A stretch of DNA of 57,684 nucleotides from Candidatus Doudnabacteria bacterium (GTDB lineage: Bacteria > Patescibacteriota > Doudnabacteria > UBA920). Under the pieces are notes generated by a model. The model had not been told where the DNA came from, ran no database searches, and saw only the letters and a list, made by a program, of their open reading frames with translations. Below are positions 8,772-40,054 of the stretch, piece by piece (position 1 is the first letter of the stretch; each line of letters opens with the position of its first letter). Position numbers and translations under genes: made by a program. The DNA is taken from assembly GCA_038230955.1 (NCBI GenBank), contig JBBRMG010000003.1, forward strand, positions 1-57,684, given 5' to 3'.

Positions 8772-8795
8772 CGACATAAAAGAACGCAATAATCT

Positions 8796-10967
8796 ATGTT
8801 TAAGCGGAAACGGGTTAAAATTTATACCCATCAAAACAAATATTTTGAAACAAATGATAGGCTGCCCATGCGCCGATCGTTTTTGGCTATAATGATGACC
8901 CCATTTCGAATCATATTTCAACTTTGTTATTACGTCGGTTTCGGCTTAATGGAAATTGTCAGATCTTTTTCTCAATTACCACAGGCCGGACGGCAACTCA
9001 AATTTAGCATGCACCGACGACGCTGGCGCTCATACAGCGTATCTTTAAATAGGCGGCAAACTCGATTAGCCTTAACCACATTTGTTTTAATGATTGGTGT
9101 AGTCTCTTTTGCTATACATGGTGCATTGCTAGTGGCATCGGGACAAAAATTAAAGGGGCAAGTGCTGGGGGCTGCTGACCAAGGATTAGGGCATTTACAT
9201 ATGGCTCAAGATGCTTTGCAAAATCAAGATAGTACCGCTATGAGCCAACAGCTTCAAATGGCTTTGCAAAGTTTTCAAACCAGTCAGCAAGATTTAGGCA
9301 GTACTAATATTTTATTAGGAAGCTTGCTCGAACTTACCCCGCAAAAACACGATGCTGATAAACTACTGCAGGCCAGCACTCTACTGACAGAAGGCGGAAT
9401 TAGCTGGACCAAATTTTACGAAATAAGCAAAGACGTGTCCGTTACACCACAAGGTATAACTGGTAAGTCAGGCCAATCAAACGTATTGGCTGACATGAAT
9501 GAGCAGTTACAAAGTGGGCGCACAAAGATTAATGAAGCCATAACATTATTAGAACAAATTGACCCGTCCTCCATACCAACCTCCAAGCGCATTGCTTTTA
9601 ACGAAGCCCGGAACAAAATGGAAATAGCTCGCACTGGCACAGCTGTAATAGGTGAGATGTTTGATTTGCTCGTGCAAATTACTTCTGGCGATAAAAACGT
9701 CCTTCTGCTATTTGAAAACAACAACGAACTGCGACCCACAGGTGGCTTTATTGGCACTTATGGTGCTATGCGTTTGCAAAATGGCCAAATTAATTCTCTT
9801 CATATTAGTAGTATTTACGATTTAGACGGACAGCTTAAACAAACTATACTGCCCCCTCAACCAATCCAAGCTGTTAATAATAAATGGTTTATGCGTGACA
9901 GTAATTGGTGGTCAGATTTCCCAGCCTCTGCTCATTCAATTACTAACTTTTACGAAAAAGAGGGTGGAGAAACGCCCGACCTCATACTGGCGATGACCCC
10001 CGATTTAATAACAGATGTTTTAAAAATTACCGGACCGATTACCTTAGATCGATATAAAGTGACTTTTACCGCTGATAACTTTGTCGAGCTAACGCAAGTA
10101 GAAAGTTCCATTAAATATGACAAAAAGTTAAACCAACCAAAACAAATTTTGGCTGATTTTGTGCCGGCGTTATTACAACGACTAAATTCCCTGAAAGGAC
10201 AGCAACTTATTCCCGTAATTACAGCGTTGCAAAAAGCACTGGTTCAAAAGCAGCTGCTATTTTATTCCCGCGATCCAGCGCTTCAAAAAAAACTGGATAG
10301 TTTTAACTGGGCTGGAGCCATAAAACAGACTGATCGGGATTATCTACTCATATCAGAAGCAAACTTGGGTGGAACAAAAACAGACACATTCCTCACAAAA
10401 GAAACTTCCTTAAACAGTGAAATAGGGTCCGACGGCACAATTAGCAATACGATAACCATAAAAAGAACAAATCCACTGGCAACCCTACCGCAATTTAAGC
10501 AACGCAGTTACTTGCGCATCTACGTGCCAAAAGGATCCAAATTAGTAGAAGCCCGCGGATTTACCCCAGTTAGTCTGCCTCCGAATAATGTCACAGGTGA
10601 TGCTGATCCCCAGGTACAGCAGTGGGAAAAAGACAGTGTTGTTGATACAGTAACGGGAACTTTCATTGGCCAAGAAAGCGGCAAAACTGTTTTTGGCAAT
10701 TGGGTAGAAATACCAGGAGGTGATGATAAAACAGTAACTATAAAATATACTCTTCCATTTAGACTAAGCGATTTTGATCATTTTAGTTTGTTACTACAGA
10801 AACAACCCGGATCGATAGAAGGTAATTTCAATTATTCAATTGATTTCCCTAACCATAAGATGGAATGGAAAAACGTCACCTTAAATTCGCTCGACTCTCA
10901 TAAACTAACTTTAGCCGAGCCTTTAGACAAAGATCATTTTTTTGGTTTTATTTTTACTCGCCCATGA
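8796..10967 (+). CDS. DUF4012 domain-containing membrane-anchored protein
   Basis: LLLFENNNELRPTGGFIG, MRDSNWWSDFP, EANLGGTKTD, LLQKQPG; N-terminal TM segment. Confidence 0.8.
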   Translation: MFKRKRVKIYTHQNKYFETNDRLPMRRSFLAIMMTPFRIIFQLCYYVGFGLMEIVRSFSQLPQAGRQLKFSMHRRRWRSYSVSLNRRQTRLALTTFVLMIGVVSFAIHGALLVASGQKLKGQVLGAADQGLGHLHMAQDALQNQDSTAMSQQLQMALQSFQTSQQDLGSTNILLGSLLELTPQKHDADKLLQASTLLTEGGISWTKFYEISKDVSVTPQGITGKSGQSNVLADMNEQLQSGRTKINEAITLLEQIDPSSIPTSKRIAFNEARNKMEIARTGTAVIGEMFDLLVQITSGDKNVLLLFENNNELRPTGGFIGTYGAMRLQNGQINSLHISSIYDLDGQLKQTILPPQPIQAVNNKWFMRDSNWWSDFPASAHSITNFYEKEGGETPDLILAMTPDLITDVLKITGPITLDRYKVTFTADNFVELTQVESSIKYDKKLNQPKQILADFVPALLQRLNSLKGQQLIPVITALQKALVQKQLLFYSRDPALQKKLDSFNWAGAIKQTDRDYLLISEANLGGTKTDTFLTKETSLNSEIGSDGTISNTITIKRTNPLATLPQFKQRSYLRIYVPKGSKLVEARGFTPVSLPPNNVTGDADPQVQQWEKDSVVDTVTGTFIGQESGKTVFGNWVEIPGGDDKTVTIKYTLPFRLSDFDHFSLLLQKQPGSIEGNFNYSIDFPNHKMEWKNVTLNSLDSHKLTLAEPLDKDHFFGFIFTRP

Positions 10968-26037: not shown

Positions 26038-26458
26038 CGCGGGGTAGAGCAACTGGCAGCTCGCAAGGCTCAATCTCGAGTAAGTTCTTTTTATGAATAT
26101 CGTCAAAAGTATTCATAGCGTTCGGTAGCACATTGTCTTTGGTCGAATCTGACAAACGTCAGAGGAAGCCGAAGTCTGCTAACTACCGAGAAGCGTTTGA
26201 ACTTATCTCACAATGGGCTGCGCCAGGGGTAACCTTGGTGTGAATTCTATCAAATTCGGGGAAACCTCCAGCAGTGGTAATCCCGAGCCAAGCTCCAAAT
26301 TTGGAGAAGGTGTAGAGACTTAATGGTAGACACCCTAACGCATTTTGCAAGGGTGAAGAGAAAGTCCAGACCACAAATTCGTATATAACGAAGCAGTTAA
26401 AGCTGTAGTGGTATGCATAACCTTGAGGTTCCGGGTTCGAATCCCGGCCCCGCAACCA
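26038..26458 (+). tRNA. Initiator tRNA-fMet(CAT), interrupted by a group I intron
   Basis: Exon 1 26038-26070 (CGCGGGG...CAAGGCT, exactly 33 nt). Exon 2 26416-26458 (CATAACCTTG...CCCCGCAACCA). C1:A72 mismatch typical of initiator tRNA; the joined anticodon arm is CAAGG-CTCATAA-CCTTG. Confidence 0.93.
26071..26415 (+). mobile_element. Group I intron (IC3-like), 345 nt, no ORF
   Basis: Inserted after U33 and ends in G. Core elements: P AAATTCGGGGAAAC (26252), Q AATCCCGAGC (26279), R GTAGAGACTTAATGG (26312), S AAGAGAAAGTCC (26356). IGS TGGGCT (26214-26219) gives the U33-G wobble. Confidence 0.92.
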
Positions 26459-26632: not shown

Positions 26633-27283
26633 ATGCCTATTCACAAAACAGTAAATTCTTCATTCTTTCTAACATGGAGCAAGCCGATGGCTTATGTTTT
26701 AGGTTATTTTGCTGCCGATGGGTGCATGTTGAAAAACAAAAGAGGAGCCCACTTTATAGAGTTTACTTCTATAGACATAGAGCTTTTGCTTTCAATACAA
26801 AATGCAATCGGGTCAAACCATAGTATTTCTGTTAGAAATCGATTTACTTTTAACCAAAATATTGCTTATCGCTTGCAAATAGGAAGCAAGCAAATATTTA
26901 ACGACTTAAGCAACTTAGGCTTCACGTCAGCAAAAAGCAATTCCTTACAATTCCCTTCAGTGCCGATGCCCTATTTTAGTCATTTTACTAGAGGTTATTT
27001 TGATGGCGATGGACATGTATCAATTATCAAACGCTTGAATCGACCATCGAGTGTAATACAGTCTGGTTTCACTTCCGGCAGTCAAAAGTTTCTTACTCAA
27101 TTGCACACGGACTTAAAAAAATATGCTAGAATCAAGGGTGGTTCGTTCTGTTACCGTAAAGGTTACAGATTGAATTTCTCTATAAAAGATTCACTCCTAT
27201 TGTATAAATACATCTATAAAGATAGTGACAATTTATTTCTTGCGAGAAAACGTTTAGCATTCGAAAGATACTACAACGTTTAA
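26633..27283 (+). CDS. Free-standing double-motif LAGLIDADG homing-endonuclease-like protein
   Basis: Motif 1 YVLGYFAADG, motif 2 FTRGYFDGDG; basic; ends 7 bp before tRNA-Asp. Confidence 0.88.
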   Translation: MPIHKTVNSSFFLTWSKPMAYVLGYFAADGCMLKNKRGAHFIEFTSIDIELLLSIQNAIGSNHSISVRNRFTFNQNIAYRLQIGSKQIFNDLSNLGFTSAKSNSLQFPSVPMPYFSHFTRGYFDGDGHVSIIKRLNRPSSVIQSGFTSGSQKFLTQLHTDLKKYARIKGGSFCYRKGYRLNFSIKDSLLLYKYIYKDSDNLFLARKRLAFERYYNV

Positions 27284-27290
27284 TGCACAT

Positions 27291-27367
27291 GGACTGGTAG
27301 CTCAGTTGGTTAGAGCATCCGCTTGTCACGCGGAAGGTCGCGGGTTCGAGTCCCGTTCAGTCCGCCA
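27291..27367 (+). tRNA. tRNA-Asp(GTC)
   Basis: GGACTGG/TCAGTCC acceptor, TCCGC-TTGTCAC-GCGGA anticodon arm, GCCA end. Confidence 0.96.
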
Positions 27368-27375
27368 AACAAATT

Positions 27376-27403
27376 CACCTCATTTCATGGGGTGTTTTTG
27401 TTT
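27376..27403 (+). terminator. Intrinsic terminator of the tRNA operon
   Basis: CACCTCAT-TTC-ATGGGGTG followed by TTTTTGTTT. Confidence 0.75.
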
Positions 27404-27518
27404 GAGGATAGAGGATGAGTTTTAGGCCTAGCTAGAGAAATGCAGTGCTGAATGGGACGGGGCAAATGTGGTAAAATATAAAAGATAGGATTTTTGCCTC
27501 CCATGAGTATTTATTAAA

Positions 27519-30500
27519 ATGCCAGAAAAATTCAAACCGACACCTGAGGAGCTAGGAATAAAGGAAAATCTCGCCGAAAACGAGAAGTCTTTTGATGTTG
27601 TGGAATTAAATACAGAAACAAGTATTGAAGTAAGTAAGAAAGATAAAAAACCCATTGGTTACTGGACGGATGTTTCAGAGGAAGAATTAATTAAAGAAAT
27701 AGAATCCCGAGGCTTAGATCCAAAGAATTTGCCTAGTACGTCAATCTTAAACGAAGTTAACTCTAGCCTAGTTGGGGGTCTTAATAAGAGATACGGTAGT
27801 CTGACCAAAGCAAGAAAAGCTTTAGGAGGAAAAGTTATAAAGCTTGAACCAGGTTATTGGAAGAACATGTCCGAAGAGGAACTTATCGATGAAATGAAAT
27901 CTCGCGGTCTAGATCCGAAAAATTTACCCTCGCAAGCTGAGATGAATGTGCATAATGGAGATTTACTCGGAGGTCTCACGAAACGTTATGGCACTGTTAA
28001 TAAAGCAAGGTTGGCCCTGGGTAGTGAGATTATTCAAAGGGCACGAGGTTATTGGAATAACCTCTCGGAGGAGGGTATGATTCAGGAAATTAAATCACGG
28101 GGTTTAGATCCTAAAGATTTACCCAAAACAAGCATTCTTGAAGAAAATTATTCCGACTTACTTAGTGGCCTAATAATACGCTTTGGTAAGTTGAACGATG
28201 CTCGTGAAGCTTTAGGAGGTCGGATCATTAATAAAGCCCCAGGTTATTGGAAGAATATGTCCGAAGAAGACCTTATAGCAGACATTAAAGCTAGAGGTTT
28301 GGATACTAAAAATTTGCCACTTTGGCCTGAATTAGCAAAAGACCACCCAGATTTAGCCTATGGGCTATCAAGTAAGTTTGGCGGAATGACTAACGCCAGA
28401 GAGAAACTAGGTGGAATACTCAAGATAAAGCCTAAAGGTTATTGGCAAAATATTTCTTTAGAAGATTTGGTTCAAGAAATACAGTCACGGGGACTTGACC
28501 CCAAAGATTTACCTTCAGGAGATACTCTCCGAAATGATAACCCCGATTTAATGGGTGGTTTACAAAGTCGCTTTGGAAGTTTTAATAGGGCTCGTGAAGC
28601 TCTTGGAAGTGAAATTACTCAAAGATCACAAGGTTATTGGAAGAATCTTTCCGAAGAAGACCTTATAACATACATTAAATCTAGAGGTCTTGATCCTAAG
28701 AATCTCCCGACTTATTTAGACTTAAAAAACCATAAAGGTTTGCTTCAAGGATTACAAAAACGATTTGGTAGCTTGCAGGAGGCTCGTATAAAGCTAGGTG
28801 GCGAACCTTTGCTATGGCTACCAGGTCATTGGAGGAATATCTCTATAGAGGATCTCAAGGCCCATATTAAAAAGAAAGGATTTGATCCTGAAAATTTACC
28901 AAGTAATTTAGCGAAAGAAAACCCAGCTCTTACTCATATTTTAAGAACTCGATTCGGAGATATGGCCTCTGCAAGAATAGAATTAGGGGGAGAAAAAGTA
29001 AAAAGACCGCGCGGTTATTGGAAAAATCTGTCAATCGAAAATCTTATACAGGAAATCGAATCGCGTGGCTTAGACCCAAAAAATTTGCCAGGCACTCATG
29101 AATTAGATTCAGATTTAGCAGTAGGGCTAGCGCAACGCTATGGGAGTTTTACCGAGGCTAGGACAGCCGTGGGTGGCGAAGTATTAAAAAGGCGTGGAGG
29201 ATACTGGAAATCTATTAACGAAGAAAAATTAAAGCTAGAGATATTAGAAAGGGGCTTAGATCCACATAACCTCCCTTCTTATAAAATACTTCGAGATACT
29301 CACTCCGATTTAGTGGCTGGGCTTACCCAGCGTTATGGTAGTTTTCCTCGTGCCAGAGAAATGCTTGGTGGGAGGAAATTGAAGAATGAAGCAGGTTATT
29401 GGAACAATATTTCTGAAGAGGAACTGGAAAAAGAAATTCGAGGGCGTGGTTTGGACCCTAAAAATCTTCCAGCCACAGAAGAATTTCAGATTAAGCACTC
29501 CGGATTACTAGCAGGGCTTAGGCAACGGTTTGGTACTCTAAATGAAGCAAGGGAAGCGCTAGGAGGAGTGGTCTCCGCAACATATTCTAAAAATCGTGTC
29601 GATAGGATCATGGGGCATTTGCAGGAGAAAGTAGTAGAAGTAGCTAAAGGCGAAACTGTTGAAGCTAAAGAAATTCAAGATCTGATTAATATCTTTGGTA
29701 ATGCAAATTGTCTTGATATATTATATAAATTTCATCCCGAATATCACAAATTACCAACAGGCAGAGTAAAAAGCATACTGGCAGATTATTTAGGAGAATT
29801 TTTATCAAGTTCAATTCCACTAAATTTGGAAAGTATACCTAATAGGGGTTTGGAATTACTTGAGAATCATACTTTTCAAGATAGCTTGATTGAAATAATC
29901 AAGAATGATGCGTTAAGTTCTTTTAATAAAAAGAAAAAAACTGATTTTTCGGCGAGTCCTCAATTAATAATGACTGAGTATTTAGATAATCTTAGAAACA
30001 TAGGCATTAAATATAATAATACGGATCTATCCTCGGTAATTCAGACAGTAGAGTCATATTATGATTCTCTCTACGAATTAAGCAAGCCAGAAAATATTGT
30101 GGATTTCGTTGATCAAGGGAGGCGATTTCCTGAATTTTATCAGCAAATCAATATTAAAGAAATCGCTGACAAAAAGAAAATTTTGTTGGCAGATGAAATG
30201 GGTGTGGGGAAAAGTGCTTCAGCGATATTAGCTAAAGAGTATATGAATGTTAGGCAAGCCCTAATTGTTGCGCCTAATAATGTGATAGAAACTTGGCGCA
30301 ACTATTTATTAGACAAGATTGGCGAAGATGGAAAGCAAATAGGATATTTTAAAGAAGGCAATGCCCCTAAGGTTTTAATTGTAAACAATTTGAATAGCTT
30401 AGAAGATAAAGATCGGAACGATTATGAGTATATTCTAATTTCTCAGGAAAAATTAAATAAAAAATACACTCAAAAATTGAGTTCGCTAGATTATGAAATG

Positions 30501-32549
30501 CTTATTGTGGATGAAGTGCACAAGCTAAAAAACATTAGTTCAGGTATCCGCTCCACACATTTATTAGATTTGGCTAGTAAAATCGAAGGTAAAGATAAAT
30601 ACCTAGCTTTACTATCGGGTACGCCAATACCAAATAAAGTTGAGGATATTGCAATTACTCTCAAGTTACTGTATCCAGAAGAGTTTGAACATATGCCAAA
30701 TAAAACTCTCGTAAAGAGAATCATTCATAGCGATTCCATTGATTTGCGTACTAAATTGCTCCCAAGAATGGAAATGAAAAAATTAGCAGAAAGCGTCGAA
30801 ATGCCGTCACTGGAAGAAAATATTATCAGTCCGGAGCTGTCAGAGATTGAGCAATCTATCTATGAAATGTTACTGGAAGAAGATGAGATAGAGTCAACTG
30901 AAAAAATTAGAATTTTACGTCAGTTTTTACTTAACCCCGAATTATTAGACGCTACCCCAAATATTGAAAGTTCCAAGAGAACTGCTGTAGGTGAATCATT
31001 GCGAAAAACTTTTGAAGAAAAAGATAAAGTAGTCATGTTTGTGAATGGTTATATTTCAAATGTGATCAAGGGGGAGAAAAATATTATCCATCAGCTAAAT
31101 CTTCCTCTGGATGTAGACGTGAGAGTTATTCACGGGAATATTAGCATTACCGAAAGGGCAGCTATCCAAAAAGAGCTAAAGGACTCTGAAAATAAAATTT
31201 TGCTTTTGGTTAGCGGGCAAACTGCAGACGTTGGAGTTGATTTCTCTGGGGGACAAAGCGTTTATTTCTATAACGAGCCCTGGACTCGGTATGAGCAAAA
31301 ACAAGAGCTTGGTAGAGTCTATCGCCCAGGTTTAAGTGAAGATTTAGAAAGTAAAACCTTCATTACTAAAAATACTATTGAGGAAGGCATTCATTTGTAT
31401 ATTCAAGCAAAAGAACAGGCTATTGAGAAGTTACTCCGAGGATTACCAAGGTCTGAGATCGAGAATCGATTACTAGATGAAAGTGAAAAACAGACTGATC
31501 CAAATCTAGAAGTCAACCCAGAATTGGCTCGATATTATTTTTCCGATTGGGATAAAATGGCTAAGATTTTTGCACATATTAAAGAAATTGGTCAAGAAAA
31601 CTTTATGCAGTTCTTGGCCGATTTCGGCAAAGATTATGCCAGTTGTTATTTAAATTTAGGCAGTCGCAGTTACCATGCAAATGCTAATAGAGTTTCTGGA
31701 ACAATAATAGACGAGCTTGCAAAAAAATCTCAGCAGAATCCAGAAGACCTTCTCATCCTAGATATTGCTTCAGGACCAGAAATGCTAAAGAAACATATAC
31801 CGACTCAATATCAAAGTAAAATTACGAGCATGGATGTTAATAAGGAACATTTTAAGGGCGAAGGTGATGATAGAGTTGTTGGTAGTTTCCAAAAACTACC
31901 ATTTGCCGATCGATCGGTAGATTATGCTAACTTTGCTTTGGCGTTGCATTATACCCAATTTATCCCAAGCAGAAATAATTATGAAAGATTAGAAACTCTT
32001 CTAGAACTCAATAGAGTTTTGAAAATCGGCGGGAAGGCAGTCCTGAATATGATTTATAGCATAGATTTTAAGGACGGAAATAAGTTGCGGAATTCCTTGG
32101 AGGCAATTGGCTTAAAAATCAAAGATGAATACAGCGGCGAGGTACAGGTTGGTAAAAATTATAAATCAAAGATTTTAACATTAGAGAAAACCGAACACCT
32201 TAACGAATCGTTAGAAGACATGGTCGATAAAATCGGTAAAGATGATTTAGATGGATTGAAGTTCGTTGGCAATAAATCAAGTGTCAGGGATACGAGGAAA
32301 ATTATCGAACAGTTTGAATTAGGTGGTAAGCAATTTAAGATTGATTTTAATGAAGAAGATAAGCAAGTGCTGGCTGAAGAACAAGAAATCACTCGACAAG
32401 GCGAAACTCTAAAACTTCAATATGGCAGTATCCAGGATATCAATAAAGAAGATATCATTTCTAATGGATTTACTCGAATTTTAATTAAAGATAAGTACAT
32501 ATTATTTAAAAAACTTGAAAAAGGCACTGGGGTTGTAGTAATTAAATAG
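27519..32549 (+). CDS. 1676-aa protein: ten ~64-aa tandem repeats, SNF2-family ATPase/helicase, C-terminal class I SAM-dependent methyltransferase-like domain
   Basis: Repeats at aa ~47-687; motif I LADEMGVGKS (aa 890), II IVDEVH, III LSGTP, VI QELGRVYRPG (aa 1262); MTase-like LDIASGPE (aa 1414), SMDVN, LPFADRSVDY. Confidence 0.88.
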   Translation: MPEKFKPTPEELGIKENLAENEKSFDVVELNTETSIEVSKKDKKPIGYWTDVSEEELIKEIESRGLDPKNLPSTSILNEVNSSLVGGLNKRYGSLTKARKALGGKVIKLEPGYWKNMSEEELIDEMKSRGLDPKNLPSQAEMNVHNGDLLGGLTKRYGTVNKARLALGSEIIQRARGYWNNLSEEGMIQEIKSRGLDPKDLPKTSILEENYSDLLSGLIIRFGKLNDAREALGGRIINKAPGYWKNMSEEDLIADIKARGLDTKNLPLWPELAKDHPDLAYGLSSKFGGMTNAREKLGGILKIKPKGYWQNISLEDLVQEIQSRGLDPKDLPSGDTLRNDNPDLMGGLQSRFGSFNRAREALGSEITQRSQGYWKNLSEEDLITYIKSRGLDPKNLPTYLDLKNHKGLLQGLQKRFGSLQEARIKLGGEPLLWLPGHWRNISIEDLKAHIKKKGFDPENLPSNLAKENPALTHILRTRFGDMASARIELGGEKVKRPRGYWKNLSIENLIQEIESRGLDPKNLPGTHELDSDLAVGLAQRYGSFTEARTAVGGEVLKRRGGYWKSINEEKLKLEILERGLDPHNLPSYKILRDTHSDLVAGLTQRYGSFPRAREMLGGRKLKNEAGYWNNISEEELEKEIRGRGLDPKNLPATEEFQIKHSGLLAGLRQRFGTLNEAREALGGVVSATYSKNRVDRIMGHLQEKVVEVAKGETVEAKEIQDLINIFGNANCLDILYKFHPEYHKLPTGRVKSILADYLGEFLSSSIPLNLESIPNRGLELLENHTFQDSLIEIIKNDALSSFNKKKKTDFSASPQLIMTEYLDNLRNIGIKYNNTDLSSVIQTVESYYDSLYELSKPENIVDFVDQGRRFPEFYQQINIKEIADKKKILLADEMGVGKSASAILAKEYMNVRQALIVAPNNVIETWRNYLLDKIGEDGKQIGYFKEGNAPKVLIVNNLNSLEDKDRNDYEYILISQEKLNKKYTQKLSSLDYEMLIVDEVHKLKNISSGIRSTHLLDLASKIEGKDKYLALLSGTPIPNKVEDIAITLKLLYPEEFEHMPNKTLVKRIIHSDSIDLRTKLLPRMEMKKLAESVEMPSLEENIISPELSEIEQSIYEMLLEEDEIESTEKIRILRQFLLNPELLDATPNIESSKRTAVGESLRKTFEEKDKVVMFVNGYISNVIKGEKNIIHQLNLPLDVDVRVIHGNISITERAAIQKELKDSENKILLLVSGQTADVGVDFSGGQSVYFYNEPWTRYEQKQELGRVYRPGLSEDLESKTFITKNTIEEGIHLYIQAKEQAIEKLLRGLPRSEIENRLLDESEKQTDPNLEVNPELARYYFSDWDKMAKIFAHIKEIGQENFMQFLADFGKDYASCYLNLGSRSYHANANRVSGTIIDELAKKSQQNPEDLLILDIASGPEMLKKHIPTQYQSKITSMDVNKEHFKGEGDDRVVGSFQKLPFADRSVDYANFALALHYTQFIPSRNNYERLETLLELNRVLKIGGKAVLNMIYSIDFKDGNKLRNSLEAIGLKIKDEYSGEVQVGKNYKSKILTLEKTEHLNESLEDMVDKIGKDDLDGLKFVGNKSSVRDTRKIIEQFELGGKQFKIDFNEEDKQVLAEEQEITRQGETLKLQYGSIQDINKEDIISNGFTRILIKDKYILFKKLEKGTGVVVIK
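27657..29580 (+). repeat. Coding tandem repeat: 10 units of about 62-65 aa
   Basis: Consensus G(Y/H)WkNxSeEdLixeIxsRGLDPKnLP-x(8-12)-LxxGLxxRFGsxxxARxxLGG, counted ten times. Confidence 0.93.
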
Positions 32550-32704
32550 AAAATTCTAAGGATTGCGATTGCAAAATAGTCCTACCTTCCTCTAAACACC
32601 TCGCCATAAATTCCCCACATGTAGTAATCCACAGGTAAGTGCCTGTCAGGGTATGCTATACTAATTGAGGCAGTAAGCCACTTATAATCTATATAAGTTT
32701 CAAG

Positions 32705-32732
32705 AACAAGGCTTCTAGAGGGCCTTGTTTTT
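32705..32732 (+). terminator. Intrinsic terminator
   Basis: AACAAGGC...GCCTTGTT followed by a T-tract. Confidence 0.65.
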
Positions 32733-32805
32733 GGTTTGCGGAAAAGCCGCGCTCAGGCAATTTTGAGGTGGCTTTTGGGTCTGCAAATTGGTATACTACA
32801 TCTAT

Positions 32806-33837
32806 ATGAATACCGTTTTATATATCATATTAGCTTTGTTAGCCTTGGGCTTTGCAGTATTACTTTATATACTCCTGGACTTAAAACGAAGCGCCGCAAA
32901 ACCCCAAGACAACGAGTCGCTCCAAGTCATGATGGAGTGGATGAAAGACATCAAGGCTGGGACCGAAGCTACTCGCGTTGGTATGCAGGCCAGTATTAAT
33001 GATACCAACAAGCAAATTAACGACCGACTGACGGAAGCCGCAAAAGTCATTGGTGGATTGCAAGGCAAGCTTGGGGAGATGTCTCAAATTGGCCCCGACA
33101 TCCGCCGCTTGTCGGAAGTATTAGCATCACCAAAAGCCCGAGGTAATTTTGGGGAAGAGATGCTCGAAAACATGTTAGCCCAAGTTTTGAATAAGACAGC
33201 CTATCAATCTCAATACAAATTTAAAAATGGCGAGATTGTGGATATGGCCGTGTTTGTCGGGGACAAGATTTTATCTATAGACAGCAAATTTTCGATGGAG
33301 AACTTCCGTCTATATAAAGAAGCCAAGGAAGACGAAGCAGCCGAGAATTTAAAAAAAGCATTTTTGCGCGACATTCGCAAACGGATTGATGAAATCCATA
33401 AAAAGTATATTTTACCCCAGGAGCGAACTTTTGACTTTGCATTAATGTATATTCCCAGCGAAGGTGTATTTCATGAGGCATTGGAAGATTCCGCCACCAT
33501 CGAATACGCCCGTAACAAAAAAGTTTATTTAGTCAGCCCCAATACGCTGTACCATCATTTGCAAATTATTTTAATCGCACTAAGGGGACAGCAAGTCAAT
33601 GTGGTTGCGGAGAAGTTACTTCACATGGTCAGCGGTATTAAACAAGAGAGTGACAAGTTTGGCCGCAATCTTGGAGTACTATCGAATCATATCAAAAACG
33701 CTAGCAACACAATGGGCACAGTCAGCAATGATTTTAGCAAATTAGAAAGCAGTATTAGCAACGCTGCAACATTACAAATGGAAGAAGTAGAATTAAGCGA
33801 ACAGCAGTTACTTGAAGCTAAGAAATTAATAGAGTAA
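32806..33837 (+). CDS. rmuC: DNA recombination protein RmuC
   Basis: PKARGNFGEEML, IDSKFS, FALMYIPSEG, VSPNTL; N-terminal TM; ATG 32806 preferred. Confidence 0.93.
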   Translation: MNTVLYIILALLALGFAVLLYILLDLKRSAAKPQDNESLQVMMEWMKDIKAGTEATRVGMQASINDTNKQINDRLTEAAKVIGGLQGKLGEMSQIGPDIRRLSEVLASPKARGNFGEEMLENMLAQVLNKTAYQSQYKFKNGEIVDMAVFVGDKILSIDSKFSMENFRLYKEAKEDEAAENLKKAFLRDIRKRIDEIHKKYILPQERTFDFALMYIPSEGVFHEALEDSATIEYARNKKVYLVSPNTLYHHLQIILIALRGQQVNVVAEKLLHMVSGIKQESDKFGRNLGVLSNHIKNASNTMGTVSNDFSKLESSISNAATLQMEEVELSEQQLLEAKKLIE

Positions 33838-33840
33838 AAT

Positions 33841-34467
33841 ATGTCAATTAGAAACCCAGATCAGCGCGTCGGCGTATTCGTCGATGTGCAAAACCTTTAC
33901 TACTCAGCGCGCAATATTTATAACTCTCGCGTCAATTTTAACGAAGTCTTGCAAGCCGCAGTAGCCGGGCGGAAACTTATTCGAGCCATCGCCTATGTGG
34001 TCAAAGCTGATATGCCCGAGGAACAAAGCTTTTTTGATGCTTTGGAAAAAGCTGGCTTTGAAGTCAAAGCAAAGGACTTGCAGACATTCGCCGGTGGTCA
34101 CCAGAAAGGTGACTGGGATGTCGGCATTGCTATGGATATTATCAAACAGATGAACAAATTAGATGTCGTTGTTCTAGCCAGTGGCGACGGAGACTTTATT
34201 CCACTGCATGAGTATCTTCAAATGACCGGTCAGCTCACGGAGACTATTGCTTTTGGCAAGTCTTGTAGCGGCAAAGTGAAAGAATTAACAGATCATTTTA
34301 TTGATTTAGACGAAAATCCTAAAGCATTTTTGATGCCAATTAAAGGTGCTGGGCGACAAACCGTTCCATCGACTAGTCGAGGTCGCTCCGACAGTACCAG
34401 CCGCCCTGCTTCTGCTAGTCGTGATTCTTCCGACACAGCCACCAAGCGAACCAATACATACTTATAA
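33841..34467 (+). CDS. NYN-domain protein (LabA/DUF88, PIN-like fold)
   Basis: VFVDVQNLY, KGDWDVGIAMD, LASGDGDF. Confidence 0.9.
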   Translation: MSIRNPDQRVGVFVDVQNLYYSARNIYNSRVNFNEVLQAAVAGRKLIRAIAYVVKADMPEEQSFFDALEKAGFEVKAKDLQTFAGGHQKGDWDVGIAMDIIKQMNKLDVVVLASGDGDFIPLHEYLQMTGQLTETIAFGKSCSGKVKELTDHFIDLDENPKAFLMPIKGAGRQTVPSTSRGRSDSTSRPASASRDSSDTATKRTNTYL

Positions 34468-34468
34468 C

Positions 34469-34912
34469 ATGCGCGTAGTTTTAGATACAAATGTTTTAAT
34501 TGACGGCTTTAAAGACGACAATTCGTACGAAAAACGAATTATTGATGAAGTTATTGCTGGTAATATTGAAGCCTATGCCAACCGGCAAACCATGCAAGAA
34601 AATCGACTCATTTTAAGCCAAATTATTGAAAGTCCGGAGTACGTAGACCAGATGAATGACTTTTTTAGCCAGCTTAATTATGTCGTGAACCGGCGGCAGA
34701 TTAATATTGTTCGCGACCCCGAAGACAACAAAATTTTGGAAAGCGCGGTGGAAGCCGATGCAGCATACTTAATTACTCGGGACAACGATCTATTACGCAT
34801 TGAGTCATATGACAAAATAAAAATTGTGAACCCCAGTGAATTTTGGGTGAAGTACAAAGACGATGGCGAAGATACTTGGAAACAATGGGCTGGGTTTATT
34901 CGCAGCCAATAA
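34469..34912 (+). CDS. PIN-domain protein (putative toxin-component family)
   Basis: MRVVLDTNVL, RDPEDNKILESA, YLITRDNDLL; start placed at ATG 34469. Confidence 0.88.
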   Translation: MRVVLDTNVLIDGFKDDNSYEKRIIDEVIAGNIEAYANRQTMQENRLILSQIIESPEYVDQMNDFFSQLNYVVNRRQINIVRDPEDNKILESAVEADAAYLITRDNDLLRIESYDKIKIVNPSEFWVKYKDDGEDTWKQWAGFIRSQ

Positions 34913-34926
34913 CTTTTATATAAAAC

Positions 34927-37809
34927 ATGGCCGCTCCGCTCGATAGTTTGAATAAACAACAACTCCAGGCCGTCACTCATACAGACGGACCACTGCTTAT
35001 TATCGCCGGGGCGGGCACTGGTAAAACCACTGTGGTGGTCAATCGCATAGCGCATCTCATTGAACAAGGTTTAGCTAAGCCTGAGGAAATTTTAGCCCTG
35101 ACATTTACCGATAAAGCCGCGAGTGAGATGGAAGAACGCCTAGATATACTACTGCCGCTAGGCAATTATGATTTATGGATTTCCACCTTTCATAGTTTTT
35201 GCGAACGCATTTTAAAGCAACACGCCCTCGACATTGGCATTCCTAACGACTTTAAACTTTTAAATGACGTCCGCCAATGGGTCTTAGTGTTTAATAATTT
35301 CGATAAATTTAATTTAAATTATTACCGCCCACTAGGCAGTCCCAATAAATTTATTAGCGCTTTAGTCAAACACTTTTCCAAGTGCAAGGATGAAATGATC
35401 ACGCCAGAGCAATATCTGAAATACGCTAACGATATGCGAGCGCAGTTCAATGGCAATAAACAGGGGGGCAAGGACACAGAAAATGATATTGTTGAAATCA
35501 ATCGAATTGAGGAAATAGCAAAAGCTTATGAAACATACCAACAACTCCTTCTCGACAACGAATATTTGGATTTTGGCGATTTAATCAACTACACCATGCG
35601 GCTATTTGAACAAAGGCCGAATATTCTAAAGTATTACCAAAAACATTTTAAATTTATTATGGTGGATGAATTCCAAGACACCAACTTTGCCCAGTATCAA
35701 TTAGTAAAAATGCTAGCCGGTTGCACCGATAAAACCAATGCGCACAATATAGTAGTAGTGGGGGACGACGACCAATCTATTTACAAATTCCGTGGAGCAT
35801 CGGTGTCTAACATTTTAAAGTTTAAAAAAGAATTTAACAATGTAAAGGAAGTAACCTTAATTGAAAATTACCGCAGCAGTCAAAACATTCTCGATTTAGC
35901 CTATGAATTTATTCAAGCCAATAATCCCGACCGACTAGAGCCCGAGCTAGGTATAAATAAAAAGCTGCACAGTAACCTGAAAGACGAGGGAGTTATTCGG
36001 GTTTTGGAAGGTAAAGACTTAAGCGAAGAACTTGATTTGGTGGTGAAAAAAGCCCAGGAGCTCAGAAAAACAGACATCGGATCAACTTGGAATGATTTTG
36101 CTATTCTTATCCGCGCTAACTCAGCGGCTGACTCATTACTGCCAAGACTTGAATCTGCCGGAATTACTTACAGTTTTGTGTCCAACCGTGGATTATACAA
36201 AAAGCCTCTAATTTACGACATTATTTCATACATGCGCCTATTGGATAATTATCACTCATCCGATGCACTTTTTAGAACTATGCGCTTACCAAAGTTTGCA
36301 CTATCCACTCGCGACATGGCCGCCGTTACTCAAGCCACATACAAAAAAACTTGGTCCCTTTATGATGCGTTGGTAAACATTCGCGAAATTGCAAATCTTT
36401 CTGACGATAGCTACACAAAAGCCGAGAGCTTAATTGAACAACTACATAAGCACAGTGAACTAGCGAGTGAGCGCTCTATTATTGAGTTATTTGTTACTAT
36501 CATTGATGACCTAGGCATACCTGAGGGGTTACAAACTGACACGCTACAAAATTTCCAAAACCGGGATATGCTGGATCAATTCTACAAACGAATTGAAGAT
36601 TTTGAAGACCAAAACGACGACAAAACTTTGCGCAATTTTATTCATACTCTGGACTTAGAAATGTTGGCGGGCGACGAGGGGCCTATTAAATTTGATCCGG
36701 AATTAGGGCCGGAGAGTCTAAGAATAATGACCATTCATTCAGCCAAAGGACTGGAATTCAAATACGTCTTCATTTTAAATATGGTTGACCAACGTTTTCC
36801 CACTCGTGCCCACAAAGACTCAATAGAAATTCCAGAGCCCCTAATTCAAGACATTCTGCCGCAAGGAGATTTTCACATGCAAGAAGAGCGCCGGCTGTTT
36901 TATGTTGGATTAACCCGAGCCAAGTCCCACATCTATTTATCGTGGGCTCAAGATTATGGCGGAGCCAAAACCAAAAAACCATCATCTTTTTTGGTAGAAA
37001 CAAAGCTAGTGCCGAGCGATAAAATTAGTCGAGCCACGGGCAAAGTGGTATTTACTCGAGAGCCGGCCAATAAAAACGCCGTGTACAAACATTTGCCCAC
37101 GGAATTTTCTTTTACCGATATTTCATTATTTAAAAACTGCCCGTTAGAATACAAATATCGCTCTTACTTAAAACTACCAATGCCCGGTAGCGGTCAGCTA
37201 AGCTTTGGAAAAACCATTCACAAAGTATTGCAATTATTTGCTGAGCAATATCAGGTAAGCCCAAACTTACCATTTGCTGTGATTGAACAATTATACGAAA
37301 GCCACTGGATTGATGAATGGTATGCAACCAAGCCAATCAAAGAAAAATACCGCGGCATGGGGCAAGAAATGATCCGCTGTTTTTACGATGACACACTAAA
37401 AACCAAACCCAATATTAAATATATTGAAACTAGTTTCCGGTTGCCATTAGGGGAGTTCTGGTTTAAAGGTAAGGCAGATAGAGCAGACTCTACATTGGAA
37501 GGACTTCAAGTGATTGACTACAAAACAGGGGAAGTGCCCAAAATAAAAAGCGGCGTGGATCAGTTACGCATTTATCAATGGGCGGCTGAAGAAGCTTGGC
37601 ATGAAAAAGTTAACCATCTTGAGTATTGGTATCTCAAAGAAAATCACCGCGCAGAAGTAAAACTAGCCAGTCCGGAAGAAATCGAATCTTTAAAATTAAA
37701 CCTGCTTGCGACAATTGAAGAAATCCGCCATGCCATTGAATTCGACGAATTCGCAATAATTCATGAAAAAACGAAACAACATAGCTGTAAATATGTAGAT
37801 TTACTTTAA
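34927..37809 (+). CDS. UvrD/PcrA-like SF1 helicase fused to a C-terminal PD-(D/E)XK nuclease (AdnAB/AddA-like)
   Basis: AGAGTGKT, VDEFQDTN, VVGDDDQSIYKFRGA, ENYRS, TIHSAKGLEF, EERRLFYVGLTRA; nuclease GKADRAD...IDYKTG. Confidence 0.92.
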   Translation: MAAPLDSLNKQQLQAVTHTDGPLLIIAGAGTGKTTVVVNRIAHLIEQGLAKPEEILALTFTDKAASEMEERLDILLPLGNYDLWISTFHSFCERILKQHALDIGIPNDFKLLNDVRQWVLVFNNFDKFNLNYYRPLGSPNKFISALVKHFSKCKDEMITPEQYLKYANDMRAQFNGNKQGGKDTENDIVEINRIEEIAKAYETYQQLLLDNEYLDFGDLINYTMRLFEQRPNILKYYQKHFKFIMVDEFQDTNFAQYQLVKMLAGCTDKTNAHNIVVVGDDDQSIYKFRGASVSNILKFKKEFNNVKEVTLIENYRSSQNILDLAYEFIQANNPDRLEPELGINKKLHSNLKDEGVIRVLEGKDLSEELDLVVKKAQELRKTDIGSTWNDFAILIRANSAADSLLPRLESAGITYSFVSNRGLYKKPLIYDIISYMRLLDNYHSSDALFRTMRLPKFALSTRDMAAVTQATYKKTWSLYDALVNIREIANLSDDSYTKAESLIEQLHKHSELASERSIIELFVTIIDDLGIPEGLQTDTLQNFQNRDMLDQFYKRIEDFEDQNDDKTLRNFIHTLDLEMLAGDEGPIKFDPELGPESLRIMTIHSAKGLEFKYVFILNMVDQRFPTRAHKDSIEIPEPLIQDILPQGDFHMQEERRLFYVGLTRAKSHIYLSWAQDYGGAKTKKPSSFLVETKLVPSDKISRATGKVVFTREPANKNAVYKHLPTEFSFTDISLFKNCPLEYKYRSYLKLPMPGSGQLSFGKTIHKVLQLFAEQYQVSPNLPFAVIEQLYESHWIDEWYATKPIKEKYRGMGQEMIRCFYDDTLKTKPNIKYIETSFRLPLGEFWFKGKADRADSTLEGLQVIDYKTGEVPKIKSGVDQLRIYQWAAEEAWHEKVNHLEYWYLKENHRAEVKLASPEEIESLKLNLLATIEEIRHAIEFDEFAIIHEKTKQHSCKYVDLL

Positions 37810-38618
37810 ACTTCAAACTTTACCCAGAGGGGTCTGTGGTCTGACACATCTATGTCTTGCTCCACCCCGAAATCGATGAGTTTAACGTCGCGAGTATAAA
37901 TGCCGTCTAAATTCATATGGCCCAGCGGCGATACATGTGTGTAACCACGATGGTTAGACGCAACTTCATAGCCCCGATCCAACAAATGCTTACGCACCAA
38001 CCGACGCTGATTAGAATAAGACACGGGAATACCTCTAGCCGCCCATTTTAGCGGTGCAGTGTTCAAATCACCGGCAAAGATAATCGCATCGACCGGTGTT
38101 TTTTCCAGTGCTTCCAAGGCAGGAGAAATTTGAGTAATCCGATCCTCAGCACTAAGCGGCATGTCCAAATGAATATTGCAAACTCGTATCACTTTGCCAG
38201 CAAGCTCCAAATCTACATACAAAGCAATACGGGATCTTTCCCGAAACATCAGCTTATACTTTGGCAGTGCGACGACCTTATACGTTTTTATTGGGAGGCG
38301 GCTTAAAATAGCCAGTCCATGCGTCCCTTTTTGCTTTCGTATTTGAGCTGGTGCATAAACGCAATGGTAGCCCAAACTCGCTGCCAGTTTCTCAGCGCGT
38401 GATTTTATTTCAACGACGTGATCTTCAACTTCTTGCAGAAGTATGATATCAGCCTTACTCAAATTTTCATTTTGCTCAAATATCGCTTGAATCAGCTCTG
38501 TTTTTTTGCCAAAATGAACATTATACGATACCAGGGTCAATGGCAATGTGGGATTTATTATGTTTTCAGGGAAGACTGTCAGTTTTGGACGTGAAAGGTC
38601 GATTGATAAATTTTCCAT
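37806..38618 (-). CDS. Endonuclease/exonuclease/phosphatase (EEP) family protein
   Basis: SYNVH, LLQEV, GLAILS, AGDLN, LDGIY, SDHRPL. Confidence 0.92.
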   Translation of the reverse strand: MENLSIDLSRPKLTVFPENIINPTLPLTLVSYNVHFGKKTELIQAIFEQNENLSKADIILLQEVEDHVVEIKSRAEKLAASLGYHCVYAPAQIRKQKGTHGLAILSRLPIKTYKVVALPKYKLMFRERSRIALYVDLELAGKVIRVCNIHLDMPLSAEDRITQISPALEALEKTPVDAIIFAGDLNTAPLKWAARGIPVSYSNQRRLVRKHLLDRGYEVASNHRGYTHVSPLGHMNLDGIYTRDVKLIDFGVEQDIDVSDHRPLWVKFEV

Positions 38619-38638
38619 AGACTTAATTATATTGTACT

Positions 38639-40054
38639 ATGGAATATATGCAAACCTCCTTATTCGGCTCCGAAACCAAGCCATCATCAAAAAAAACTCC
38701 TACTAGAAAGAGGGGGGTCGTAAAAAAACGCACCACTGTACCTAAACTTATGGCAACTGAACCTATGGTGGCAGATTCCCCTAAAGACCCCATTGGCATT
38801 AACGACGAACTAGAGAAAATCCTCGGCGTTGGTGAATATTTGGATTATATTAACCACATTCTCAAAGTTACTGAAGATGTAAAAGTGCAAGGCGAAATCT
38901 CTCGTCTCAGTCCTCATCCTACTGGTGTCTATATGACCCTAAAAGATAAGGATGGCGAGGGCGTACTGGACTGTTACATCAATCCCTACACTTTCCAAGG
39001 CCTTGGCATACAACTGGAAGAAGGAATGGAAGTAAAACTGACCGGCACGCCCGGAATATTTAAACGGCGTAGTCAGCTATCATTCAAAGTAGAAAACGTC
39101 GAGCTCACTGGCGAGGGAAGTTTAAAAAAAGCTTATGAATTACTTAAGGCTAAATTAGAGCAAGAAGGTTTATTTGACCGAAAACGAGAATTACCAGAAT
39201 TCATTCACTCTATTGGTGTCATAACTTCTAAAACTGGTGCTGTCATAGATGATTTCCGTCACAACCTTGAAAAACGAGGATTCAAACTATACTTCAAAGA
39301 TTGCCGGGTAGAGGGTGCTCAGTCAGTCAGTCAAATCAGCGCGGCTATAAAAAACTTTAACATCAATTATCCTGATTTGGATTGCTTGGTAGTCATGCGG
39401 GGCGGCGGCAGTCTGGAAGACATGCAAGCTTTTAATAACGAGGGGATAGTGAAAGAAGTTTTCGCTTCGCGCATACCAGTAATAGCTGCTATTGGCCATG
39501 ACCGCGATGTGCCCCTAGCGTGCCTAGCCGCTGATAAGTTTACCTCAACACCCACGGCAGCAGCGGTCTTAATTAATTCTTCTTGGGCGCGATTGCAAAC
39601 TGAATTACCAGAACTCCAAAACAGTTTAACTCAACAGTTTGAAAATGCTTTGCATTCTCAGCGCAATCGCCTCGCCAACATAACGCACAAACTGACTGGG
39701 AGTTTCAATGCCATATTCCAAAGGTTTCGTTATTTATCAGAAAAAATCTTACGCGGGGCCGGGCAAGTAGAAACAGGGGTGATAGAAATCAAGCAACGGG
39801 CGATATCGACACTCAACCACTCCCTAGTAGCGTTAGAAAGACAGCTGCAAAAATATGGGGAGCAGGTAGTCAGTGCCGGAAAATTGCTGGCTACCGCCAA
39901 TCCGGAGCGCAATCTAAAACTGGGCTACTCCTTAGCTTACAATAGCGCCGGTAAAATTATTAGATCGGCCAGTAGTGTGGCAAAAGGGTCACATATTAAG
40001 GTACAATTACACAAAGGCAGTATGGACGCGGAAATTATTAATATTGAACAATAA
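38639..40054 (+). CDS. xseA: Exodeoxyribonuclease VII large subunit
   Basis: VQGEIS, LFDRKRELP, MRGGGSLED, AIGHDRD, TPTAAA, LKLGYS. Confidence 0.95.
   Translation: MEYMQTSLFGSETKPSSKKTPTRKRGVVKKRTTVPKLMATEPMVADSPKDPIGINDELEKILGVGEYLDYINHILKVTEDVKVQGEISRLSPHPTGVYMTLKDKDGEGVLDCYINPYTFQGLGIQLEEGMEVKLTGTPGIFKRRSQLSFKVENVELTGEGSLKKAYELLKAKLEQEGLFDRKRELPEFIHSIGVITSKTGAVIDDFRHNLEKRGFKLYFKDCRVEGAQSVSQISAAIKNFNINYPDLDCLVVMRGGGSLEDMQAFNNEGIVKEVFASRIPVIAAIGHDRDVPLACLAADKFTSTPTAAAVLINSSWARLQTELPELQNSLTQQFENALHSQRNRLANITHKLTGSFNAIFQRFRYLSEKILRGAGQVETGVIEIKQRAISTLNHSLVALERQLQKYGEQVVSAGKLLATANPERNLKLGYSLAYNSAGKIIRSASSVAKGSHIKVQLHKGSMDAEIINIEQ

Follow-up and report, generated by a model that had tools for sequence, protein, structure and literature searches.

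The stretch of DNA analysed here, called the window throughout, comprises positions 1 to 57,684 of contig JBBRMG010000003.1 (57,684 nucleotides, nt; assembly GCA_038230955.1) from a Candidatus Doudnabacteria bacterium. We examined one large open reading frame (ORF) in it, at 27519..32549 on the forward strand, which begins with ATG and encodes 1676 amino acids (aa) plus a stop codon (100% self-match to P0001). Its product joins a long array of repeats to an SNF2-family ATPase and a class I S-adenosylmethionine (SAM) methyltransferase. From the N-terminus to the C-terminus it divides as follows.

27519..27656, forward: acidic, hydrophilic leader at the N-terminus, aa 1-46; the relatives P0002 and P0003 share its opening residues, MPEKFKPTPEEL
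27657..29585, forward: array of ten repeats of the Pfam HNH_repeat type, aa 47-689, from Pfam, self-alignment and a three-repeat structure model
29586..30158, forward: conserved helical N-domain, aa 690-880, ending in an FP(E/D)..Q.IN.KE stretch before Walker A
30159..31478, forward: SNF2-family ATPase with two RecA-like lobes, aa 881-1320, from Pfam, sequence matches in the PDB and motifs
31479..32192, forward: helical extension and class I SAM methyltransferase of RRP8/nucleomethylin-like type, aa 1321-1558, from Pfam, alignment, AlphaFold2 (AF2) and Foldseek
32193..32546, forward: conserved C-terminal alpha/beta domain, aa 1559-1676, modelled with high confidence beside the methyltransferase and kept in the family

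The initial annotation, made from the letters of the window, had placed this ORF at exactly this position and strand and had described the same order of repeat array, SNF2 ATPase and methyltransferase, on which Pfam, motifs and models now agree. It had also named a chimeric ORF as one finding that would undo its reading, and a chimera is ruled out. The same repeat type and core occur collinearly in P0002, P0003 and P0004, which come from other assemblies, and the ORF is covered, at 99-100% identity and without joints, by tiling contigs of an independent sediment-metagenome run. Contigs of that run also branch off the window sequence at 29096, in a conserved repeat motif, and at 30236, in the Walker A region, which points to related genes or strains in the same sediment sample.

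The central ATPase belongs to the SNF2/Swi2 group of superfamily 2 (SF2), with Pfam scores of 70.5 bits for SNF2-rel_dom (cut-off 24.9) and 41.4 bits for Helicase_C (cut-off 23.5). Its best sequence matches in the PDB are CHD1, a Sulfolobus Rad54-like protein, ISWI and INO80 (E-values 4e-12 to 1e-9). The annotated motifs I, II, III and VI were found and are kept across homologues: GVGKS lies at residues 895-899 (nt 30201-30215), DEVH at 998-1001 (nt 30510-30521), SGTP at 1033 and QELGRVYRPG at 1262, and Walker A, the DExH box, motif III and the arginines of motif VI are invariant in 5 homologues and nearly invariant in 49. A profile of the helical N-domain that precedes the ATPase matched nothing in Pfam or the PDB.

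The methyltransferase passes the Pfam cut-offs of two related families, Methyltransf_8 (30.7 bits against 27) and Methyltransf_11 (29.1 bits against 21.2), the latter being the resemblance first noted; PF05148 is precomputed for many relatives of the window protein. Motif I reads ILDIASG at 1413-1419 (nt 31755-31775), and both the SAM-site residues D1415, G1419, P1420 and D1439 and two residues of the helical extension, N1388 and R1391, are invariant in 49 homologues. An AF2 model of residues 1320-1676 built from 49 homologues is confident (predicted local distance difference test score, pLDDT, 91.7; predicted template-modelling score, pTM, 0.90) and contains a three-helix extension, a class I Rossmann-type methyltransferase and the C-terminal alpha/beta domain. 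A Foldseek search of the PDB with the methyltransferase model returned nucleomethylin/RRP8 as the top match (2zfu, E 4e-9, TMt 0.67), followed by the Trm112-dependent Hvo_0019, Bud23, SAMTOR, WBSCR27 and NTM1. Sequence identity to RRP8 is 19-20%, and strand 4 is similar in the two proteins, with vDYANFALALHY in the window methyltransferase and D-x-A-x-F-C-L-S-L-M-G in RRP8. RRP8/nucleomethylin is the eukaryotic rRNA m1A methyltransferase; the window protein differs from it by the fused SNF2 motor and the extra helical and C-terminal domains. That the enzyme lacks the marks of restriction-modification DNA methyltransferases, as first proposed, holds both in sequence, since (N/D/S)PP(Y/F/W), PCQ and ENV motifs occur nowhere in the 1676 aa, and in structure, where no DNA methyltransferase appears among the top 50 Foldseek matches. 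Because the SAM-site residues and the ATPase motifs are invariant, both engines look catalytically competent, and as far as sequence can tell both enzymes of the window protein look active. For the C-terminal domain, a profile search of the PDB gave one marginal match, to SaPI CpmB (E 3e-4), which we set aside as probably a helical coincidence.

The array that occupies the N-terminal part of the protein consists of ten units in register, as counted at the outset, starting at aa 47, 112, 177, 242, 307, 372, 436, 499, 561 and 626, with a period of 62-65 aa. Pairwise identity between units is 37-61% in protein and 42-63% in DNA; a gapless repeat finder detects a DNA-level period of 195 nt at 61-73% identity, and Tandem Repeats Finder reports no repeat in the array DNA. 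Such low DNA identity indicates an old and diverged array rather than a recent or an assembly duplication. A scaffold, GYW..S.E.L..EI..RGLDPKNLP...L....L..GL..RFG...AR..LGG, alternates with variable patches that lie mainly after NLP and before AR. The units match Pfam HNH_repeat (PF18780) at 57.7 bits summed over the array, against a cut-off of 26; no single stretch passes the cut-off by itself, and the best one spans positions 1-52 of the 54 in the model. The namesake of the repeat is missing: no nuclease family, HNH or other, is among the Pfam matches to the window protein at E<=0.01, which separates it from the HNH homing endonucleases. A structure model of three repeats (pLDDT 81) has five short helices per repeat; its best match in BFVD is an uncharacterised phage protein (E 5e-4), and folds of SAP, HeH/LEM and Rho-N type matched it only at E>0.5. 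The window array is made of homing-endonuclease-associated (HNH_repeat) units, and at ten units it is the longest array of its type that we found. An array-only search with it returned a single protein, P0254 (L168 8001-9344), a stand-alone array of 447 aa of the GYW/RGLDPKNLP sub-type that is 48% identical to half of the window array; it lies among housekeeping genes, with no SNF2-methyltransferase core nearby.

A first full-length search gave four relatives and made the protein look like a near-orphan, a reading that searches with the core overturned. A profile of the core, taken as the last 982 aa of the window protein (aa 695-1676), matched 371 proteins at E<=1e-10, the best 120 of which span 95-100% of it at 43-79% identity, and an exhaustive HMMER search of 1.84 billion cluster representatives found 298 clusters (50% identity) at E<=1e-30. 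The core always lies at the C-terminus, behind an N-terminal extension of 18 to ~1650 aa. Organisms named for members include Candidatus Levybacteria (for example P0019), Blackburnbacteria (P0112), Saccharimonadia (P0036) and the Patescibacteria group; in the GTDB species set, members occur in Saccharimonadales, Paceibacterota and, at 25% identity, Micrarchaeota. The window protein is collinear with these relatives along the full 980-aa core, which it too carries at its C-terminus, and shares with them the principle of an N-terminal array. It is, by sequence, a member of a large, unnamed family of the Candidate Phyla Radiation (CPR)/Patescibacteria with a few members in DPANN archaea. Its architecture is not unique, being one of hundreds in CPR genomes, and it corresponds to no named system in PADLOC, NCBIfam or the literature, as the initial annotation had supposed. 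Together these comparisons assign the protein, in each case as a genuine member, to the SNF2 family, to the RRP8-like branch of class I methyltransferases, to Pfam HNH_repeat and to this CPR family. Two distant members, L009 9485-12643 from a Micrarchaeota metagenome-assembled genome and P0007 from an unassigned contig, show ~25% identity and the order SNF2 then methyltransferase and have no repeat arrays, which suggests that the pairing of SNF2 and methyltransferase is older than the arrays or independent of them.

The arrays set in front of this constant core differ from relative to relative, and their repeat classes are unrelated to one another; the arrays consist of helical units of 60-90 aa. 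The commonest, a ~70-aa class of the form PEGW...(HTH)...YYSPELV, was detected by a purpose-built hidden Markov model in at least 58 of 126 members, in 2-12 copies, and it passes the Pfam cut-offs of winged-helix/helix-turn-helix (HTH) families (HTH_29 39.4 bits, HTH_23 31.9, HTH_28 29.7). A ~85-aa class is typified by LPQVDKETGIYTDENGEQW, and further classes include W..R..L..IF..W, a diverged GYW class and others. The HNH_repeat type of the window protein occurs in only 5 of 123 long N-termini (the window protein and four others); with ten such units where most relatives use HTH-type repeats, the window protein is an unusual variant of its family. Even close cores can carry different arrays. 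For P0016 the window protein is the closest core (66% identity), yet P0016 has HTH-type repeats; and whereas the cores of P0002-P0004 are 72-79% identical to that of the window protein, no repeat of theirs is more than 64% identical to a window repeat and the repeats show no one-to-one order. By these sequence comparisons, the arrays diverge much faster than the core.

In other members the array is not fused to the core at all. Five loci with short cores (1045-1132 aa) were examined, and all five have 2-5 tightly packed, co-oriented, repeat-only genes directly upstream of the core. The regions concerned are the following; across the five loci the array genes belong to several repeat classes.

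L085, 1096-6951: repeat-only genes before a short core
L087, 3774-6998: repeat-only genes before a short core
L170, 1559-6994: repeat-only genes before a short core
L171, 4529-6997: repeat-only genes before a short core
L172, 1-6996: repeat-only genes before a short core, GYW class

The array proteins of four of these five loci share a tail of ~15 aa resembling ISPDEA..L..L.E, which reads ISPDEAREELSKLLE, ISPQEAKEEFDKLFE, SPDQADELMRGLEEE or SSDEADRWLKELI, and the short cores of the loci with tailed array proteins have an extra conserved N-terminal stretch. The shared tail may dock the array proteins on that stretch. The recurrent link between array and core, either by fusion or as neighbouring genes, is the strongest evidence both that the two work together and that the array can be exchanged; judged from these genes, the array behaves as an exchangeable module.

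The loci themselves show little else in common. Among ORFs within 7 kb of the gene at 14 loci there is no shared synteny, except for the array genes and a small protein described below. The content of G and C at third codon positions (GC3) of the window ORF is 0.302, the lowest among the 41 ORFs of >=150 aa in the window (the others have a mean of 0.422 and a standard deviation of 0.046), which bears out the impression of AT-rich codon usage. Elsewhere in the family the gene likewise lies below the mean GC3 of its neighbours at 14 of 15 other loci, most clearly in genomes of higher GC, and such a systematic shift fits a gene that moves horizontally. In keeping with mobility, the gene has a large serine recombinase beside it at one locus (L001) and a VirD4-like ATPase at another (L002).

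The recurrent neighbour is a protein of 100-190 aa that directly adjoins core or array genes in 7 of 17 loci.

L006, 12930-13457, reverse: small protein weakly resembling 3-methyladenine DNA glycosylase (AAG, also MPG)
L086, 12090-12524, reverse: small AAG-like protein
L007, 5111-5416, reverse: small AAG-like protein
L008, 7351-7767, forward: small AAG-like protein
L085, 681-1037, reverse: small AAG-like protein
L087, 10416-10985, forward: small AAG-like protein
L171, 10268-10723, forward: small AAG-like protein

One member scores 26.2 bits with Pfam Pur_DNA_glyco (E 6e-6), under the cut-off of 27. A profile of the seven sequences has human AAG as all of its five best PDB matches, collinearly, at E ~0.1; L007 retains the catalytic TEAY, and ETQPY is present in L171. 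We treat this neighbour as a lead, drawn from sequence, that the chemistry of the family concerns DNA purines. A kinship between it and the C-terminal domain of the window protein was considered and rejected (hhalign probability 0.2).

The reading we favour, tentatively and with somewhat less than even confidence, is that the window protein is an array-targeted, ATP-driven methyltransferase of nucleic acid, probably DNA, encoded by an accessory and horizontally mobile gene. The array would serve as an exchangeable module by which the protein is targeted or anchored to nucleic acid, double-stranded DNA being the best candidate. Powered by ATP, the SNF2 motor would track along the duplex or distort it, and the tethered methyltransferase would then methylate what the motor exposes, a DNA base being the likeliest substrate and a bound protein or RNA less likely ones. 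SNF2 motors are translocases of double-stranded DNA; together with the HTH arrays seen in relatives and the AAG-like neighbour, such a motor makes a DNA base the most economical substrate. An accessory role, in genome conflict or epigenetic marking rather than in core housekeeping, is suggested by arrays that evolve fast and are swapped, by a distribution that is patchy and lacks synteny, and by an atypical composition. The initial view of the array as a nucleic-acid-binding targeting module gains indirect support from the winged-helix/HTH arrays of relatives and from the separate array genes upstream of short cores.

Several observations pull the other way. The nearest relatives of the methyltransferase act on rRNA (RRP8, Bud23) or on protein N-termini, not on DNA, so RNA and protein are possible substrates too. 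The three-repeat model has no significant match among solved structures (no PDB match at E<1), and with no structural match for a unit of the HNH_repeat type, DNA binding by the window array rests on the association of its Pfam family and on analogy with relatives. The array is also nearly neutral in charge, its 643 aa carrying a net +8. The window has no gene for the AAG-like partner, whose homology to AAG falls short of significance. Most family loci sit amid housekeeping genes rather than in defence islands, and PADLOC gave the window protein only partial matches to SNF2 domains, the best being HmaA, ZorD, BrxH and DrmD; the scores for HmaA (64 bits) and DrmD (39.7 bits) both fall over the SNF2 N-lobe and cover ~220 of 1176 model positions. 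The literature searched holds nothing that describes this CPR family, and with it no biochemistry for any member.

The kinship with rRNA methyltransferases invites a different account, in which the protein is an RNA-directed enzyme: a base methyltransferase of rRNA or tRNA (RRP8-like m1A or Bud23-like m7G) whose SF2 ATPase remodels ribonucleoprotein and whose arrays bind structured RNA. The best structural and Pfam matches of the methyltransferase are indeed rRNA methyltransferases, the window gene follows a tRNA cluster, and several family loci adjoin translation genes. The ATPase, however, is clearly of the SNF2 type, with CHD1, ISWI and INO80 among its matches, a family that tracks on duplex DNA; the common array type is HTH/winged helix; proximity to tRNA genes occurs in only 3-4 of 13 loci, near chance in a small genome; and hypervariable arrays would be needless for the modification of rRNA. 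We consider this account quite unlikely.

The favoured combination of a targeting array, a motor and a methyltransferase has counterparts in known systems, none of which the window protein joins. Type ISP (LlaGI/LlaBIII) and Type I (HsdS/HsdM/HsdR) restriction-modification enzymes likewise combine a targeting module, an SF2 translocase and a SAM methyltransferase into one machine, and the separate, multiple, exchangeable arrays of the short-core relatives resemble HsdS by analogy. The window protein differs from both types in having no nuclease (none among its Pfam matches), no (N/D)PP(Y/F) motif (including NPPY), a methyltransferase outside the DNA methyltransferase class, an SNF2 motor, and tandem repeats instead of target recognition domains. 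Fungal DNMT5, which carries an SNF2 ATPase and a C5 cytosine methyltransferase in one chain, sets a precedent, since its methylation depends on the hydrolysis of ATP by the fused motor. DNMT5 differs in its C5 methyltransferase with PCQ and ENV motifs, absent in the window protein, in its opposite domain order and in being eukaryotic. The theme of a helicase with a methylase is common to Hma (the SNF2 helicase HmaA, the methylase HmaB and the ATPase HmaC) and to DISARM with its DrmD, whose partner genes are absent in the window.

Such parallels bear on the proposal, also made initially, that the gene serves in defence. In its strict form, the protein would recognise and inactivate invading DNA, alone or with partners, like components of DISARM, BREX, Zorya or Hma. 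This agrees with the identity of the best partial PADLOC matches, with the hypervariable targeting modules and the atypical composition, and with neighbouring genes at three loci. In L003 a 766-aa SMC-like ATPase (7697-9997, forward), which matches PADLOC mad3 (2.5e-61) and LmuB (2.5e-19), ends 4 nt before P0005; in L002 a mad8-like ATPase lies downstream of the family gene; and in the window RmuC, NYN and PIN genes follow it. The matches to mad3 and mad8 are to generic ATPase folds and come from two loci only. Scores against defence models, moreover, stay within the SNF2 domain and far below cut-off, at 33-54 bits against 500-1100 in NCBIfam. DrmD reaches 33.4 bits against 610, and the neighbours of the window gene are tRNAs, LAGLIDADG, RmuC, NYN, PIN and AddA-like genes rather than those of DISARM; for Zorya, BREX, Dpd and Hma there are partial SNF2-lobe matches only (DpdE 40 bits against a cut-off of 500), with no partner genes in the window. 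No PADLOC model, HmaB included, matched the methyltransferase domain, the protein has no nuclease or other killing domain, and most loci are not defence islands. No known system is therefore matched, and a defence role may still be entertained; as a strictly anti-phage protein it is, in our judgement, a doubtful case. This proposal overlaps the favoured array-targeted methyltransferase in mechanism and differs from it only in claiming an immune role. The two unannotated genes that follow P0005 in L003 may belong to a larger operon in that lineage.

The housekeeping surroundings of most loci would be expected if the protein were a nucleoid or transcription remodeller, in which the SNF2 motor strips or repositions chromosome proteins (like RapA or Mot1), the methyltransferase modifies a nucleoid protein or RNA polymerase, and the arrays only anchor the whole to DNA. 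Conservation of the core is strong, at 45-55% identity even between distant CPR classes; neighbours include rpoB/rpoC in L172, S15/PNPase in L170 and a mur/mraZ cluster in L087; the protein N-terminal methyltransferases NTM1/NRMT are among the structural neighbours of the methyltransferase (TMq 0.35-0.37); and NCBIfam gives a weak match to RapA. That match, however, amounts to 28 bits against a cut-off of 576 (PRK04914, 28.1 bits), and a remodeller would not be expected to show radical swaps of arrays between close cores or several alternative array genes at one locus. Nor do a GC3 systematically under that of host genes and the lack of shared synteny fit it well, and the number of clusters, a few hundred against CPR genomes that we estimate at many thousands, suggests a patchy distribution. 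We regard a housekeeping remodeller as unlikely, if deserving of some weight.

The flanks of the gene carry the following features.

27291..27367, forward: tRNA-Asp(GTC), found by ARAGORN and by Rfam tRNA at 70.1 bits; the gene immediately upstream, not part of the protein
27376..27404, forward: terminator-like hairpin (27376-27394) and T-run closing the tRNA cluster; stem of 8 bp with 4 GC pairs, tail TTTTTGTTTG
27469..27477, forward: candidate extended -10 element TGGTAAAAT, 41 nt upstream of the ATG, at consensus level only
32705..32740, forward: candidate terminator of the ORF (hairpin 32705-32729); perfect 8-bp stem AACAAGGC / GCCTTGTT, 9-nt loop, T-rich tail

The extended -10 element and terminator that had been assigned to the ORF are both present in the sequence, as consensus-level features only. 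No -35 element was found upstream of the ORF by the promoter scanner. The candidate terminator hairpin starts 156 nt past the stop codon and was read by eye, the loop limit of the hairpin scanner (8 nt) having kept the 9-nt-loop hairpin out of its output.

Integration of the window gene at the tRNA flank, as first proposed, finds no support in these surroundings. No direct repeat of the 3' end of tRNA-Asp of the att type lies within 27250-32900, no integrase or recombinase is among the flanking window ORFs scanned, and the family has no common tRNA linkage or synteny; the only island-like trait of the window gene is its atypical GC3. A tRNA gene adjoins the family gene in the window, L005 and L008, and also in L001 if the recombinase element that lies between them is counted, which makes 3-4 of 13 loci and is not clearly above chance. 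The element in L001 (1424-7198, ~5.8 kb) carries a large serine recombinase and separates tRNA-Trp from the family gene, and in L005 the family gene directly follows tRNA-Trp; by this comparison, the L001 element looks like an insertion beside the gene, not its carrier. A phage or plasmid origin was rejected as well: IMG/VR gave only generic SNF2 matches (core residues 76-646, 20-33% identity), and neither PLSDB nor INPHARED held a match to the methyltransferase plus C-terminal region.

The same searches bear on the idea, raised at the outset, of a host-directed protein, that is, an effector which an episymbiont would secrete or inject and which would remodel or methylate host DNA. Members of the family occur only in the episymbiotic CPR and DPANN lineages, and in L002 a VirD4/TraG-like coupling ATPase adjoins the family gene. 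Coupling-protein neighbours are found at that 1 of 17 loci only, however, no secretion genes lie near the window gene, and no homologue was found on plasmids or phages in the three databases. The window protein has no signal peptide and no transmembrane segment (maximum 19-residue hydropathy 0.98), and its sequence is best explained by a cytoplasmic, single-chain protein. An effector role is very improbable.

If the arrays do choose DNA targets for the motor and methyltransferase, the AAG-like neighbour allows a more specific and speculative picture of a modular, re-targetable DNA-marking machine of episymbiotic prokaryotes. Fused arrays, or several alternative adaptors docking by a shared C-terminal tail, would pick targets in the manner of HsdS or of transcription activator-like effectors, the duplex would be opened by the SNF2 motor, a non-canonical purine methylation (of the m1A, m3A or m7G type, on the Watson-Crick or minor-groove face) would be set by the RRP8-like enzyme, and the protein with the AAG fold would read or excise the mark. 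Bacteria are not known to use such a chemistry in immunity or epigenetics. We offer this full scheme as a long shot.

CPR bacteria and DPANN archaea make up a large share of microbial diversity, and few of their lineage-specific proteins have a known function. The family described here is present in databases yet undescribed, under generic names such as 'SNF2-related protein', 'methyltransferase domain-containing protein' and 'SNF2 family helicase/UbiE methylase', and the window protein is a rare array variant within it. It is a conserved, clearly enzymatic, two-engine protein with hundreds of variants, in which the motor-methyltransferase stays constant while the repeat arrays can be exchanged. 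Should the arrays determine which DNA is targeted, the family would offer a modular means, found in nature, of directing methylation; should the substrate prove to be a DNA purine, for which the AAG-like neighbour is a hint, genome marking or immunity in bacteria would gain a new chemistry. For expression and assay, the fused form in the window has the convenience of being a single gene, and even a modest outcome would give a domain map and a name to a family annotated only as 'SNF2-related' or 'methyltransferase domain-containing'.

The neighbourhood of the gene in the window holds some further features. Upstream lie an ATP synthase operon, a CCA-adding-type enzyme, tRNAs and a LAGLIDADG gene. 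Downstream, 32788-40054 contains RmuC, a NYN nuclease, a PIN_3 protein, an AddA-like UvrD helicase with a PD-(D/E)XK nuclease, an ExoIII-family enzyme and XseA; the listed ORF of the PIN_3 protein overlaps the NYN gene. At 26038-26458 on the forward strand is a tRNA-Met(CAT) gene with a C1/A72 mismatch, which is initiator-like, and a 345-nt intron in the anticodon loop. This interrupted gene was missed by ARAGORN with default settings and detected when introns were allowed, and its intron holds a group I intron (Rfam RF00028, 68 bits, 26199-26383). Between tRNA-Met and tRNA-Asp, outside the group I intron, a free-standing ORF of 216 aa (26633-27283, forward) resembles LAGLIDADG homing endonucleases (LAGLIDADG_3, E 5e-11). 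No ORF in the window has a lower overall GC (0.353), its GC3 (0.341) is among the lowest, and together with the 1676-aa ORF it forms an AT-rich stretch around tRNA-Asp.

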